Of a stretch of DNA of 50,413 bases, positions 44,341 to 50,413 are shown piece after piece. Source of the stretch: Candidatus Nomurabacteria bacterium (lineage in GTDB: Bacteria > Patescibacteriota > Minisyncoccia > Phycocordibacterales > SBAW01); NCBI GenBank assembly GCA_943356415.1, contig CALREW010000003.1:1-50413 (forward strand), in the 5' to 3' direction. The notes beneath the pieces were generated by a model that was not told where the DNA came from, did no database searches, and saw nothing but the letters and a program-made list of their open reading frames with translations. A program made the translations under genes and the position numbers. How positions within the stretch are numbered: position 1 is the first letter of the stretch; each line of letters begins with the position of its first letter.

Positions 44341-44412
44341 GCTCCCGTGGTGAAATGGATATCACGACTGGCTTCGAACCAGTTATTCCAGGTTCGAGTC
44401 CTGGCGGGAGCA
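44341..44412 (+). tRNA. tRNA-Arg(TCG)
   Basis: Cloverleaf; anticodon arm actgg-cTTCGaa-ccagt; T-loop TTCGAGT; CCA not encoded. Confidence 0.93.
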
Positions 44413-44524
44413 CCTAGACAGAAATATCTGCCCTGCGGCAGATTTTCTGCGCAGGTTCTGACCTGAGCTAAGACCCTCTTGGGGATTAGACGCTAGTCTG
44501 CTATTGTTTTGTCGTCTAAGTTCA

Positions 44525-44574
44525 GCGGATATCGGTTTGGCCTGAGGAATACCTCTAGGCTGTGTTAGAACGGC
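44525..44574 (+). repeat. Degenerate copy of the tRNA-Gly(GCC) 5' half with hairpin insert
   Basis: gcggatatcggtt-[tggcctgaggaatacctctaggct]-gtgttagaacggc versus tRNA gcggatatggtt-ta-gtggtaggacggc. Confidence 0.7.
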
Positions 44575-44608
44575 CGCAGGTTCAGTAAAGGTCATGAGTT
44601 CCTAGAAT

Positions 44609-44655
44609 GCCGGATAGGTTCTCGCTTGGGCAAGCCCTGAGCTGTGGTAGGACGG
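44609..44655 (+). repeat. Degenerate copy of the tRNA-Gly(GCC) 5' half with hairpin insert
   Basis: gccggataggtt-[ctcgcttgggcaagccctgagct]-gtggtaggacgg. Confidence 0.75.
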
Positions 44656-44669
44656 TCAAAGTTTGAAAT

Positions 44670-44740
44670 GCGGATATGGTTTAGTGGTAGGACGGCTCCT
44701 TGCCAAGGAGCAGGCGGGAGTTCGATTCTCCCTATCCGCA
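44670..44740 (+). tRNA. tRNA-Gly(GCC)
   Basis: Acceptor gcggata/tatccgc; anticodon arm gctcc-ttGCCaa-ggagc; T-loop TTCGATT. Confidence 0.93.
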
Positions 44741-44916
44741 CAAGCACAAAAATGAGCCCTTCGAAGGGCCATTTTTGTTTGTGCGGATAGAGGAAGCCGA
44801 CTGCTCGGCTTCCGTGGAGAATCGAACAGCTGAGCTATGTTACCCTCAGGTAACAGGCGAGCTGGTGCCCAGACCAAGGTGAGCGACGGCGAACCTTGAG
44901 TCGCGGGCGATCTCCC
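44741..44916. mobile_element. tRNA-anchored fold-back mini element
   Basis: Inverted copy of the tRNA 3' end (44780-90 and 44816-27), consecutive hairpins, T-arm-like remnant cgatctccc at 44908-16. Confidence 0.5.
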
Positions 44917-45026
44917 GGCATCTCTCCTTGTTTCCCGTGTAACAGGCAAAATAGACAACAAGACGCAAAAGACATCCAGGTTTTATGAATATTGGGTGTT
45001 GAAAAATAAGGGTTTTACTCAAAATC

Positions 45027-45055
45027 TGTGGATAACATTGGGGACATGTGCATAA
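45027..45055. promoter_or_regulatory. DnaA boxes in an AT-rich intergenic region
   Basis: TGTGGATAA (45027-35, consensus) and TGTGCATAA (45047-55, one mismatch). Confidence 0.5.
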
Positions 45056-45151
45056 AAGACACGTCCGATAGGCCTTTAGAATATGGTTCGATTTCAAAAA
45101 TATGGCCTAAAATAAGGTCTTTTTGACTTTTTAGGTCTAAGAAAGTAAAAA

Positions 45152-45395
45152 CGTTTCACGTGATAGGAATTATATGAAGTTTCCCGTGAAAACAACTGAA
45201 AAGCGCCTAACAGGCAACCTAGGAGAGGCTTTAGTTGCTAAATACCTTACAAAACAAGGATTTATAGTACTTTCACGTAACTATCTCCTTGCGTATGGGG
45301 AGTTGGACCTCGTAGCTAAAAAGGCAGGAGTTATCCACTTTGTTGAGGTTAAGTCTGTTACATGTGAAATACCCCCAGATGTTTCCCGTGAAATG
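45152..45395. promoter_or_regulatory. Cluster of parS-like sites
   Basis: Four degenerate matches to TGTTNCACGTGAAACA at 45152, 45178, 45356 and 45380. Confidence 0.6.
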
Positions 45396-45590
45396 AGTAT
45401 TATTAAAAACCCTGCTGAAAAGATAGATGAGCACAAATTGCGCAAAATAGGGAAGGCCGCTCAGACATATCTAGTCAACATGGATCTTTTGGACATGGAC
45501 TGGCAGGTAGATGCGGCACTTGTATGGATTGACCGTGCCTCTAAACGAGCAAAGGTCGAGTTGCTTGAAAACGTGAGTGCGGGCATATAA
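45174..45590 (+). CDS. yraN: YraN family (UPF0102) nuclease
   Basis: G.LGE..A.YL...GF..L.RNY...GELDLVA......FVEVK. Confidence 0.9.
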   Translation: MKFPVKTTEKRLTGNLGEALVAKYLTKQGFIVLSRNYLLAYGELDLVAKKAGVIHFVEVKSVTCEIPPDVSREMSIIKNPAEKIDEHKLRKIGKAAQTYLVNMDLLDMDWQVDAALVWIDRASKRAKVELLENVSAGI

Positions 45591-45636
45591 AGGACATTGA
45601 TGTCCTTTATGGTAGGGTAGGGAGGTTCGAAAAATT

Positions 45637-45707
45637 CGGGGCGTAGTATATCGGTAGTATGCGTGCTTTGGGAGCACGAGGGCCGGGTTCGATTCCCGGC
45701 GCCCCGA
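45637..45707 (+). tRNA. tRNA-Pro(TGG)
   Basis: Acceptor cggggcg/cgccccg; anticodon arm cgtgc-ttTGGga-gcacg; T-loop TTCGATT. Confidence 0.93.
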
Positions 45708-45715
45708 CAGATTTA

Positions 45716-48293: not shown

Positions 48294-48393
48294 ATATCGA
48301 GTATACCTGCGAGAAGGTTTTCGACGAGGTTATCTCAAAGGCATCCAGTATGCTAGGTTGTAGGGCGACGAGCGGGAACTCGTCGTTCAAAAA

Positions 48394-48447
48394 GCGGGAT
48401 TAGCCCGACATGCGTAGCAGTCGAGGTCCCGACCGCAGCGTCGGGAT
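48394..48447 (+). repeat. tRNA-Gly(TCC) 5' decamer followed by a REP-like hairpin element
   Basis: gcgggattag, then cccgac...tcccgac-cgcagc-gtcggga. Confidence 0.55.
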
Positions 48448-48457
48448 TCTCAGAAAA

Positions 48458-48546
48458 GCGGGATTAGTTCTCACCTGGGTAAACCCTAGGTTATGTTAGA
48501 ACATCTAGACAATGGGCCTAGAGTAATAACGAGGACACAGTCCGCA
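48458..48546 (+). pseudogene. tRNA-Gly(TCC)-derived tRNA-like copy with D-loop hairpin insert
   Basis: gcgggattagtt-[ctcacctgggtaaaccctaggtt]-atgttagaacatc, then stem tctag/ctaga and 3' strand agtccgca; no T arm. Confidence 0.6.
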
Positions 48547-48550
48547 AAAT

Positions 48551-48624
48551 GCGGGATTAGTTTAATGGTAGAACATCAGTTTTCCAAACTGAGAGCACCG
48601 GTCCGATTCCGGTATCCCGCACCA
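48551..48624 (+). tRNA. tRNA-Gly(TCC)
   Basis: Acceptor gcgggat/atcccgc plus ACCA; anticodon arm tcagt-ttTCCaa-actga; T-loop TCCGATT. Confidence 0.92.
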
Positions 48625-50146
48625 AAATCTGACTTTCAGAAAATTGACCGACTTTTTCATTGGCGGCGCACAGCGCCGCCCATGCGTTTTGTCCCGACAA
48701 ATCCTCTCCGCTCGGCGCGGTGAGCTGCGCCTCGCGGTTGGCCAAGACGAGGTTCGAGCCAAAGATTTCTTTGGCAGCAACCTTTTTGCTAAAAAGGTTG
48801 CTCTCCCGCGCGATTTTAGGCAGATTCTCTGCCTCTTTTATCCATTCTGTCATCGGTTCGAGCCAGCCAGTCCGCTTTTGTTCAATCCGCGCCGTTTGCT
48901 CTTCCAGCGACTTCTTTTCGGAAAGGAGTTTTGCTTTCTCGGTGCGGTAGATTTCTCGCTCAATATCTTGTTCTAAATAGCCATCGAGAAGTCGCTGGAG
49001 CTTAATTTGAATGGCGCGGATTCTCTCTCCGGATTCCTGAACAAAAGCGGTTGAGGATTGGGCGGCTTCGGTTTTCTCTTTTTCAAGCATAGCGGTTAGT
49101 TCCGCCGCCCAATCCGGTCTCAAAGAAAATTTTTGTAGTAGAGATGATAACTGGCGATCTAGTTCCTCTTGGCGAATACAAGGTTCGGGACATTTCAACT
49201 TTGATTTCTTGGTGCAGTGATAATAGACATATTCGTGAACATTTCCATTTTTCTGTTTCTTCACCTTGTATTCGCCAGTTATCATCATTCCGCATGAGGC
49301 ACAGGAAAGGAGTCCGCAAAAAGGTTGTGGTTCATTTTTTTGCTTGTGGTGCGGACGGCCTCGTTGCTTCAAAACTTCCTGCGCCTTGTCCCAAATTTTC
49401 TTTGAGACCACTGGCTGGTGCTTGCCCTCGTGGATTTCGCCACCATAGCGAAAGTGTCCGTAGTAGAAGGGATTGGAAAGGATAAAAGTAATTCTGTCTC
49501 GGTGGAGTCGCTTGCCGTTTTTTGAATGAATACCGGATTGCGCCAAAAAGTTTGAAATGTCCTCAAGGCGACTTCCATTTTTCGCGTACAGCTCAAACGC
49601 CTTGCGAATGAGTGAGGCGCGCTTCTTGTCCACGATAACAGTTTTCGTTCGCACATCATTGATATATCCGATAGGCGCAAGGCAGGGATATTCGCCGCGC
49701 CTCACTTTTTGGCGCAATCCACGCTTCGTATTTTCGGCAAGCGAATCCACATAGTATTTGCTTTGCCCAAAGGCGATATTGAGCATGAACTTTCCTTGTG
49801 AGGTATTTTCACACCAGAACTGCGGAAATTTCAGGTCCGCAAGTCCACCGCCGTCAAGCAGGTAGATAATCTTTCCACCGTCAACAGAATTGCGCGCCAA
49901 TCTGTCGGGGTGCCAAGCAAGGATAGCGTTTGCATCGCCTCGCTCTATGCGCGAAATCATTTTGTTGAAAATCGGGCGGCCGGTAATTTTGGCGGATTGC
50001 TTTTCAATAAATTCCTCGGCGATGTGCAAACCCTCTTGCCTGGCAAAGGCGCGCAATTCTGTGATCTGCGCTTCAATAGATAAAACCTGCTTGTCCTCCA
50101 CATCGGTGGACTTGCGGGCGTAGAGAAAATATTTGTAGTTGTTCAT
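48557..50146 (-). CDS. Large serine recombinase (resolvase, recombinase and Zn-ribbon domains)
   Basis: YARKS catalytic Ser, SIEAQ, SAK..GRP.F, DRLARN, NPFYYG, CASCG...YYHC...C, coiled coil; the last codons run antisense through tRNA-Gly; alternative start at 50152. Confidence 0.93.
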   Translation of the reverse strand: MNNYKYFLYARKSTDVEDKQVLSIEAQITELRAFARQEGLHIAEEFIEKQSAKITGRPIFNKMISRIERGDANAILAWHPDRLARNSVDGGKIIYLLDGGGLADLKFPQFWCENTSQGKFMLNIAFGQSKYYVDSLAENTKRGLRQKVRRGEYPCLAPIGYINDVRTKTVIVDKKRASLIRKAFELYAKNGSRLEDISNFLAQSGIHSKNGKRLHRDRITFILSNPFYYGHFRYGGEIHEGKHQPVVSKKIWDKAQEVLKQRGRPHHKQKNEPQPFCGLLSCASCGMMITGEYKVKKQKNGNVHEYVYYHCTKKSKLKCPEPCIRQEELDRQLSSLLQKFSLRPDWAAELTAMLEKEKTEAAQSSTAFVQESGERIRAIQIKLQRLLDGYLEQDIEREIYRTEKAKLLSEKKSLEEQTARIEQKRTGWLEPMTEWIKEAENLPKIARESNLFSKKVAAKEIFGSNLVLANREAQLTAPSGEDLSGQNAWAALCAANEKVGQFSESQILVRDTGIGPVLSVWKTDVLPLN

Positions 50147-50340
50147 GCTCATACAATTATTGGGCAAAGCAAATCCGAGACAGAATTAAAATCGCGCGGG
50201 AGGCGAACCTCGTCTTGGCCAACCGCGAGGCGCGGCTCACCGCGCCGAGCGGAGAGGATTTGTCGGGACAAAACGCATGGGCGGCGCTGTGCGCCGCCAA
50301 TGAAAAAGTCGGTCAATTTTCTGAAAGTCAGATTTTGGTG
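48620..50340. mobile_element. Recombinase cassette bounded by 137-bp inverted repeats at the tRNA-Gly 3' end
   Basis: 48620-48756 and 50204-50340 are reverse complements at 136 of 137 positions. Confidence 0.8.
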
Positions 50341-50413
50341 TGTCTTTACAGTTTGGCTCGAACTCATTTTATCAAAAACTGCTGAACGAAACCAGACCAA
50401 GGAAGCCAGCCCC

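Follow-up and report, generated by a model that had tools for sequence, protein, structure and literature searches.

We analysed a 50,413-nt stretch of DNA from a Candidatus Nomurabacteria bacterium (the window), which is the whole of contig CALREW010000003.1 (C3) of an 803-kb, 7-contig, 97.5%-complete genome (GenBank assembly GCA_943356415.1). The last 1.9 kb of the window hold an element inserted at the 3' end of a tRNA-Gly gene, in which an intact open reading frame (ORF) for a large serine recombinase is enclosed by long terminal inverted repeats and is itself filled with nested shorter ones (Table 1). It is strongly supported that this self-complementarity is maintained by selection for folding as a single strand. 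The recombinase and its tRNA targeting are in themselves ordinary. The predicted protein is identified as a large serine recombinase by its three-domain architecture, with Pfam matches to Resolvase (PF00239, residues 14-159, 6.6e-22), Recombinase (PF07508, residues 182-269, 4.7e-17) and Zn_ribbon_recom (PF13408, residues 282-340, 3.7e-07), all over the curated cut-offs. The translation contains YARKSTD near its N terminus, which we take to be the catalytic-serine Y-x-R-x-S-T motif of serine recombinases, and is more likely to begin at an in-frame ATG at 50149 or 50143 than at the listed TTG. The outermost 5 nt of the left terminal repeat are the last 5 nt of tRNA-Gly (CACCA, 48620-48624), and the same repeat also encodes, on the minus strand, the C-terminal part of the recombinase. 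The inward-facing hairpin and T-run in this repeat, 38 nt past tRNA-Gly, is probably the terminator of that gene.

Between the outer ends of the two terminal repeats (1721 nt), the element contains 23 maximal perfect inverted repeats of at least 10 nt, 19 of which reach at least 11 nt. For the latter, the 235 other tiles of the same size in the window have a mean of 0.71 and a maximum of 4, and 200 mononucleotide shuffles a mean of 0.23 and a maximum of 2. Perfect repeats of at least 10 nt cover 45% of the nucleotides of the element and 34.6% of its inner 1447 nt. A sequence-only reading of the window had proposed a single multi-branched fold, and every helix that it listed was found at its coordinates: the 16-, 14-, 15-, 11-, 14-, 15-, 13-, 13-, 12-, 17- and 17-nt pairs are exact, as are the short pairs 49855-62/50086-93, 48863-71/49410-18, 48835-43/49480-88, 48758-65/48768-75 and 49780-90/50141-51, and the 16-nt pair 49502-17/49735-50 has one mismatch. 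The repeats nest almost throughout: of the 91 helix pairs among the 14 internal repeats of at least 12 nt, 3 cross, all of them through one 12-nt pair. Random placement of helices with the same spans gave a mean of 15.7 crossings and a minimum of 5 in 5000 trials. Minimum-free-energy folding of the inner 1447 nt recovered the nested design for both DNA strands and for RNA. Helices abut one another at 3-way and 4-way junctions, as had been read, often without any unpaired base; the linkers at the four-way junction (Table 1) measure 0, 4, 0 and 0 nt. The longest-range pairs lie up to 1368 nt apart. The tile, shuffle and placement controls rule out a chance origin of the repeats. A shufflon-type system of multiple inversions is also ruled out, since no two repeat pairs share a sequence and the pairs lie one inside another.

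The fold runs through the coding sequence. For the 1410 nt of coding sequence outside the left repeat, we compared folding energies with those of 20 synonymous-codon shuffles that kept the protein and the codon usage. The z-scores were -13.5 (sense) and -12.5 (antisense) with RNA parameters, and -16.8 (sense) and -15.7 (antisense) with DNA parameters, so that on both strands and for both molecules the energy lies 12.5-16.8 standard deviations below the shuffles. Pairing between two stretches of coding sequence occurs in each of the three relative codon phases (94, 48 and 76 nt), and the ARKSTD codons that include the catalytic serine pair with GGGLAD codons, as the sequence-only reading had pointed out. 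A preference for third codon positions to pair with one another was not found in the recombinase gene of the window. Since all codon phases are used in pairing, the amino-acid sequences of both arms are coupled and bent to fit the pairing.

Table 1 Features of the recombinase element in the window and positions of the other recombinase copies in the same genome (C1, C2, C6 and C7 are contigs of that genome; L009 and L011 are homologous loci).
Feature	Position	Strand	Basis or remark
tRNA-Gly(tcc), insertion target	48551..48624	+	ARAGORN; Rfam tRNA, 70 bits
Large serine recombinase ORF, 536 aa as listed from TTG, intact	48557..50167	-	Pfam
Left terminal inverted repeat, 137 nt	48620..48756	.	99% complementary to 50204-50340, 1 mismatch
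GC-rich hairpin and T-run, inward-facing	48662..48680	+	terminator-like site in consensus scan
Inner nested-helix region, 1447 nt	48757..50203	.	trunk, two local hairpins, 3-way and 4-way junctions, zero-nucleotide linkers
Four-way-junction domain	48863..49418	.	helices 48863-71/49410-18, 48872-84/49038-50, 49055-66/49104-15, 49116-32/49393-409
Further helices of the four-way-junction domain	49143-57/49272-86 and 49170-84/49263-77	.	
Right terminal inverted repeat; recombinase 5' leader	50204..50340	.	
Second copy of the inward-facing hairpin and T-run, in the recombinase leader	50280..50298	-	consensus scan
Repeat-proximal 73 nt of the conserved non-coding arm, truncated at the contig end	50341..50413	-	~92% identity to arms of L009 and L011
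Further recombinase copies, same genome	C7:13073-14671, C2:94429-95982, C2:106013-107521		
Further recombinase copies, same genome (continued)	C2:232-1650, C1:85326-86711, C1:26836-28119, C1 end + C6 end		

The architecture is shared by a family. A scan of one genome per species gave 137 related stretches, the best 80 of which were kept (L009-L088); together with five loci from the same genome these make 85 homologous loci, or 86 with the copy in the window. The best 80 come nearly all from Patescibacteria, of many labelled classes, with protein identities of 49-94%. Each of the 85 homologous loci contains between 5 and 51 perfect repeats of at least 11 nt. Terminal repeats of 31-219 nt, differing in sequence, were detected in 60 of the 86 loci, and most of the others are cut by contig ends. 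The genome of the window alone carries eight recombinase copies, the others at 40-72% amino-acid identity to that of the window, and all of them show the folding trait, including some at 40-45%. In a scan of 1320 windows over the whole genome, each repeat-rich window proved to be a recombinase copy, apart from two artefacts caused by 100-nt runs of N, which extends to the genome the earlier remark that such a fold had been noticed in no other gene of the window. A tRNA gene lies within 600 nt of seven of the eight copies; the eighth is split over the ends of C1 and C6, and its tRNA is on C6. Two of the copies have an in-frame stop, a TAG in the C7 copy and a TGA in C2:94450-95985.

Four or five of the genome's 14 contig ends fall within these elements, and many contigs end at terminal repeats with lengths that equal assembler word sizes (55 or 141 nt; 77-nt overlaps), as they might if the architecture were produced by assembly or amplification. 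Contig breaks are, however, what long inverted repeats would be expected to cause, and the repeats explain many of the breaks in assemblies of the Candidate Phyla Radiation (CPR). The ORFs are intact, the same architecture recurs in 80 loci from many independent assemblies, and three public sequencing runs from one study have contigs with stretches identical to the element of the window. Nor could an artefact generate the covariation described next. We therefore reject an artefact, which is hardly credible as an explanation.

To follow the helices over evolutionary distance, we aligned 38 complete elements (54-90% nucleotide identity to that of the window) and mapped the perfect repeats of each sequence onto the alignment columns. 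The mapping yielded 30 helices whose positions are conserved, with support from up to 37 of the 38 elements for a helix and with one crossing pair. Watson-Crick pairs fill 83.6% of the cells in helix column pairs, compared with 27-33% when the partner is slid by 1-3 columns. Changes on both sides were seen for most pairs of the terminal repeats and for a third to half of the pairs in many inner helices; helices that keep the same alignment positions with different sequences amount to covariation. RNAalifold, run independently on 20 diverse homologues of the four-way-junction domain, recovered the same helices, with 84 pairs, 26 of which show compensatory double changes and some of which are divided almost evenly among two or three pair types. 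The codon-shuffle z-scores, the 30 covarying helices and RNAalifold support the sequence-only reading that the cassette is selected to fold as a single strand. Helix columns also diverge more slowly than unpaired columns at every distance class (0.060 versus 0.146 at 85-95% identity, 0.166 versus 0.279 and 0.270 versus 0.348 in the others). At close range, 113 double changes were observed where 32 are expected under independence, alongside 639 single changes that break or make a pair. Such frequent single changes indicate that the helices turn over and are not rigidly kept, and they do not support an automatic homogenisation of helix arms by conversion. In this alignment, the pattern looks like selection with turnover, and not like the automatic copying of one arm from the other.

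A mutational by-product would offer a different origin for the helices, namely template switching on transient single-stranded DNA (ssDNA), for instance at replication forks without SbcCD, which perfects near-palindromes. Perfect Watson-Crick pairing with neither wobble nor strand bias would suit this process, and SbcD, part of a hairpin-cutting nuclease, was not found in the 97.5%-complete genome. Yet nothing else in the 803-kb genome shows the trait, sister recombinase genes of the same phylum are without it, and pairing in all codon phases forces amino-acid changes. In addition, helix positions conserved over 54-90% identity and the slower evolution of helix columns are a signature of purifying selection. 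We consider such an origin very improbable.

The sister recombinases serve as natural controls. Homologues of the recombinase, at 31-75% identity and with trait-less forms included, were found in 110 of 301 sampled genomes of the phylum (E<=1e-60). Ten same-phylum recombinases at 31-37% identity all adjoin a tRNA gene, which in eight converges on the 3' end of the recombinase gene, the arrangement also seen in the window; in these ten, the number of repeats of at least 11 nt ranges from 0 to 3, no repeat reaches 13 nt, and terminal repeats are absent. Three further repeat-poor recombinases lie at 48-50% identity and five repeat-rich ones at 39-49%. A FastTree phylogeny of 100 proteins, two rows of which are wrong ORFs on very long branches, placed the repeat-poor forms at the base and contains a derived clade of 73 that is uniformly repeat-rich; the trait changes at least four times on this tree, and two of the changes are forced by well-supported branches. 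Three loci (L007, L008 and L085) have terminal repeats of about 100 nt with few inner repeats (L008, L085) or fewer long ones (L007), which indicates that terminal and inner repeats are separable features. The repeat-poor recombinases may belong to larger elements: co-directional genes lie upstream of four of the five relatives examined, and Pfam named three of the ten upstream proteins (a tyrosine integrase, a 724-aa Toprim protein and a domain of unknown function). Direct repeats of the tRNA end of at least 12 nt were not found within 20 kb (9 kb for one) of these five relatives.

Comparison of the loci revealed a common layout. In the direction of the gene, a non-coding arm is followed by the first repeat, the gene, the second repeat and the 3' end of a tRNA gene on the opposite strand. 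In 34 of the 60 loci with a detected repeat, no more than 6 nt separate the end of the repeat from the 3' end of a tRNA gene; the sequence common to tRNA end and repeat is usually CACCA or CTCCA, and at least nine tRNA isotypes are targeted. The tRNA-Gly at the insertion in the window is left intact. An empty site is provided by an 18-kb contig of a relative (run X4, record 25), in which the same tRNA-Gly is present and unrelated sequence follows directly after 48624; this continuation is the sequence near the end of contig C2 in the present genome. It is a single case, from an assembled contig. A search for empty sites in 30 relatives from other genera returned mostly matches to the tRNA alone or short stretches, at ~66-76%, of the neighbouring gene. 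A direct repeat of the tRNA end, of at least 12 nt, was not found at the far side of the element in other loci. Proteins with 90-94% identity are found in genomes that bear different CPR class labels, indicating recent transfer, although the element has no transfer or replication gene. The family is one of ~2-kb integrative elements of Patescibacteria, each with only a large serine recombinase, at the CCA end of a tRNA gene. The sequence-only reading had proposed a minimal mobile element at the tRNA; the recombinase-only content and the empty site agree with this, but the repeat-flanked gene is not the whole element.

The missing part is the arm beyond the right repeat. It is conserved among elements over 260-360 nt and no further, which puts the unit at ~2.0-2.3 kb; L009 and L011, whose arms match that of the window closely (Table 1), come from other organisms. 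The arm is non-coding, differs between relatives by indels of 1-6 nt and forms local hairpins that covary. Its last 25 nt (window 50341-50365) are highly conserved. A T-loop-like GTTC motif stands exactly 25 nt from CCA in 25 of 29 loci, and the corresponding distance in real tRNAs is 21 nt (taken from correctly scored rows and canonical tRNA geometry). In serine integrases, a shifted zinc-ribbon contact separates phage from bacterial half-sites, which the 4-nt offset of GTTC recalls. A TGnTAnAAT-like box ends 3-6 nt before the repeat, where a two-hexamer scan of the arm detected no promoter. From these motifs, we infer that the arm end may be a recombinase-binding mimic of the target that overlaps an extended -10 promoter. 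The tRNA junction coincides with the outermost 5 bp of the terminal stem and probably marks the crossover, so that the stem can hold only the inner half-site and the outer half falls outside the repeat. The suggestion in the sequence-only reading that the stem rebuilds a complete recombination site is not supported.

The arm also appears elsewhere in the genome. An identical 77-nt piece of it (window 50337-50413) terminates both C2 and C3, in the same orientation. Over the last 400 nt of C2, the conserved arm end leads into ~40 nt with a T-loop-like motif, then CACCA, then the ancestral flank of tRNA-Gly. CACCA thus recurs beside the ancestral flank, with the arm in an unexpected orientation and about 40 extra nt. 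The remainder of the arm was not found in the genome bin. This suggests that the arm is duplicated head to head, or is present in two orientations within the population.

Orientation also varies among loci. The gene is reversed relative to the tRNA in seven (L015, L034, L041, L053, L058, L064 and L022). L053:1189-3104 lies between convergent tRNA genes, Arg-ccg and Leu-cag, and its terminal repeats do not match over their outer 80 nt, which is what recombination between copies at two different tRNAs would be expected to leave. In L069, the conserved arm end stands on both flanks of the repeat-flanked gene, inverted, and in L022 the tRNA is 5' of the gene and the arm end 3'; these two may be either real inversions or a path chosen by the assembler through the repeat. 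One could read such cases as a sign that the repeats act in duplex DNA, with the 137-bp pair as a Hin-like invertible switch and the inner repeats as secondary features, such as rearrangement substrates or cruciforms. Six of the reversed loci and L022, the contig ends of C2 and C3 that run into the same 77 nt as if two orientations or a duplicate were present, and the long terminal but few inner repeats of L007, L008 and L085 all lend themselves to this explanation. Short-read assemblies are, however, unreliable as to how a segment is oriented when the perfect repeats on its two sides exceed the assembler word, and an invertible switch leaves unexplained the nesting (3 of 91 crossings, compared with 15.7 expected), the pair-specific sequences and the helices that abut without linkers. 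Pairs up to 1368 nt apart could not extrude from a duplex; nested as they are, they are inexplicable in duplex DNA. We find it quite unlikely that the repeats act in this form.

A fold of a single strand could be one of DNA or of RNA. Across 26 internal helices (12,463 cells), 77.6% of the cells are Watson-Crick, 4.3% G:T, 4.2% A:C and 13.9% other. The sequence-only reading had looked to the balance of G-T and A-C mismatches to identify the folding strand. That comparison showed no excess on either strand (533 G:T versus 529 A:C, p = 0.93) and so singles out neither. What is constrained is simple Watson-Crick complementarity, to the same degree on either strand. In functional RNAs, G:U pairs are tolerated on the strand that folds and are normally in clear excess there; neither strand shows such tolerance here, so that DNA is favoured. 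The local hairpins point in the same direction. The loop is 3 nt long in 322 of the 467 whose stems measure at least 6 bp, with C(GAA)G and its complement in the lead (44 each). Over 120.7 kb of elements, 62 copies of GCGAAGC and 39 of its complement were counted, compared with 1-5 for control heptamers, and the density of the two together per kb is 3.3 in the repeats, 1.9 in the arm and 0.31 in the inner part, against 0.4 for the window overall. GCGAAGC hairpins are rejected as a universal feature, since the element of the window has none. A recent review describes GCGAAGC as an extraordinarily stable DNA mini-hairpin that resists nucleases and is far more stable than its RNA counterpart; it is found at primase sites in the complementary-strand origins of G4-type ssDNA phages, which remain free of single-strand-binding protein (SSB) (PMC13037366).

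The fold could nevertheless act in RNA. An mRNA reaching from repeat to repeat, or a pair of sense and antisense transcripts, would hide the ribosome-binding site and start codon, and the 137-bp duplex would lead to very low recombinase synthesis or to processing by RNase III. Fold-back inhibition of this kind is known for transposase mRNAs of insertion sequences. The RNA z-scores of both strands are compatible with such a role, the region of the start codon pairs with internal coding sequence (50141-51/49780-90 and 50160-74/49756-70), and a transcript could start at the base of the stem if the TGnTAnAAT-like box before the repeat is read as a promoter motif. However, wobble is not tolerated, the loops are mostly of the 3-nt DNA mini-hairpin type, the arm upstream of the putative promoter is likewise rich in covarying hairpins, and the two-hexamer scan misses the box. 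Rfam matched only the tRNA (E up to 1), which rules out a known RNA family. We judge an RNA function unlikely. The sequence-only reading had left the choice between an ssDNA and an RNA phase; DNA is favoured by the wobble comparison, by the triloops and GCGAAGC and by the hairpin-rich arm, and the RNA side is disfavoured. The constraint is best read, from the patterns of pairing, as the folding of ssDNA of either polarity.

Taken together, these observations are compatible with a minimal integrative element that is selected for an ssDNA phase, most plausibly uptake by natural transformation; we hold this proposal and its negation in about equal balance. In such a cycle, the whole element would pass through a single-stranded stage in either polarity, and the fold would make the strand compact, largely double-stranded and branched. 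The symmetry of the two strands agrees with transformation, in which either of them is delivered as ssDNA. Genes for ComEC and DprA are present in the host, and SbcD was not found there. Saccharibacteria are described as naturally competent (PMC10187176, PMC10633639), and competence genes are said to be prevalent in the phylum (PMC12455944). The fold may shield the entering strand from nucleases and from SSB, DprA or RecA, and may keep the ends of a broken strand together. Stable mini-hairpins of the repeats and the arm could prime second-strand synthesis; lying in inverted repeats, they are alike on either entering strand. Once the duplex is restored, the recombinase would insert it where a tRNA gene ends. 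The repeats also supply inward-facing terminators, one probably serving the tRNA. The complete scenario, in which the elements travel as naked ssDNA through the CPR competence machinery, snap-fold, splint breaks, prime themselves and insert at any tRNA end, is more speculative, and we regard it as rather doubtful in this full form.

Several results weigh against an ssDNA phase. The sister recombinases of the phylum that adjoin tRNA genes do without folding, so that folding is dispensable for integration as such. Single changes that break or make a pair are far more common than double ones at close range. The RNA fold is as far from its shuffles as the DNA fold, and if the box outside the right repeat is a promoter, the mRNA would start at the stem base and contain the whole fold, which favours RNA. 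The GCGAAGC hairpin is absent from the window's own element and is present in the repeats of only 24 of the 60 elements. In public sequencing data, where four runs were compared, all as assembled contigs, no single-stranded, circular, hairpin or inverted form of the element was seen; unitigs stop at the repeats and no contig bridges a repeat informatively; three skips were listed, each in single low-depth or divergent contigs, and the public RNA runs came to ~0.06 of sampled words. Finally, conjugation-type secretion systems are described in Patescibacteria as well (PMC12102498) and would be an alternative source of ssDNA.

The element resembles several known systems in part. Like other large-serine-recombinase elements (phage serine integrases, TnpX/TndX-type transposons), it combines a three-domain recombinase with site-specific insertion and apparently a short shared core, and it is inserted where a tRNA gene ends, at a site that is empty in a relative. 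Unlike these, it has no cargo, its gene is surrounded by terminal inverted repeats of 31-219 nt in the family and lies wholly in nested helices, and many tRNA isotypes are used rather than one site. With integron attC, the CTX phage attP and the ends of IS200/IS605 it has in common intrastrand DNA pairing and a covarying sequence. There, however, short hairpins (about 60-150 nt) are the site itself, act with tyrosine recombinases or HUH enzymes and have a strong strand preference, whereas the folded unit here is 1.7 kb long and includes a gene, its enzyme belongs to the serine recombinases, its pairing shows no strand bias and its stem holds at most half a site. Plasmid single-strand origins (rolling-circle) and single-strand promoters (conjugative) are hairpin initiation systems; together with G4-type phage origins and ssiA they share with the present family GCGAAGC-type and stable triloop hairpins in non-coding parts. 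Those systems extend over 100-300 nt, on replicons with a known single-stranded stage, whereas the present elements have no replication or transfer gene and pair through coding sequence. Rod-like coding RNAs such as hepatitis delta virus and Obelisks are RNA replicons with many wobble pairs, in which the coding sequence is self-paired throughout. The likeness lies in coding sequence that pairs with the rest of its own strand, and the differences in that the present element is chromosomal DNA without a wobble signal. Hin segments also hold a serine recombinase gene between inverted repeats, as do these loci in both orientations, but Hin is a small invertase with 26-bp sites and an enhancer, compared with a large recombinase, repeats of 31-219 nt and inner helices. 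IS607-type serine transposons have the DNA-binding domain N-terminal to the catalytic domain and lack terminal inverted repeats (PMC4058570). The N-terminal catalytic domain and long terminal repeats rule out this type here.

In the literature searched (full text, mostly outside subscription journals and without supplements), we found no description of these elements or of a recombinase gene with nested internal repeats; a further search brought up only known systems of folded DNA and of serine recombinases. As far as we could find, there is no precedent for a DNA element with a gene that is self-complementary over its whole length: known DNA elements that fold as single strands use short end hairpins, whereas here a whole 1.6-kb protein-coding gene pairs with itself. 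If the ssDNA reading holds, it would show how an element that has neither transfer nor replication genes can move among distant bacterial lineages reliant on taking up DNA, and would give a testable example of nucleic-acid structure constraining protein evolution. Travel as naked ssDNA, if true, would be a new transmission route for mobile DNA, with a protein sequence shaped by the self-pairing of its gene. In addition, recombinases aimed at the conserved end of tRNA genes may serve as genetic tools in organisms that are hard to handle.

The surroundings of the insertion show some further features. A 16-nt unit occurs three times in direct copies upstream of and into tRNA-Gly (starts 48388, 48452 and 48545; window 48388-48560), and its end is the first 10 nt of the tRNA, so that two partial tRNA-5'-like starts precede the real gene; the relative's contig is without 47 nt of this region (48395-48441). 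Three other tRNA genes, Arg-tcg, Gly-gcc and Pro-tgg, lie up to 4.3 kb upstream (window 44341-45708) with no element attached.

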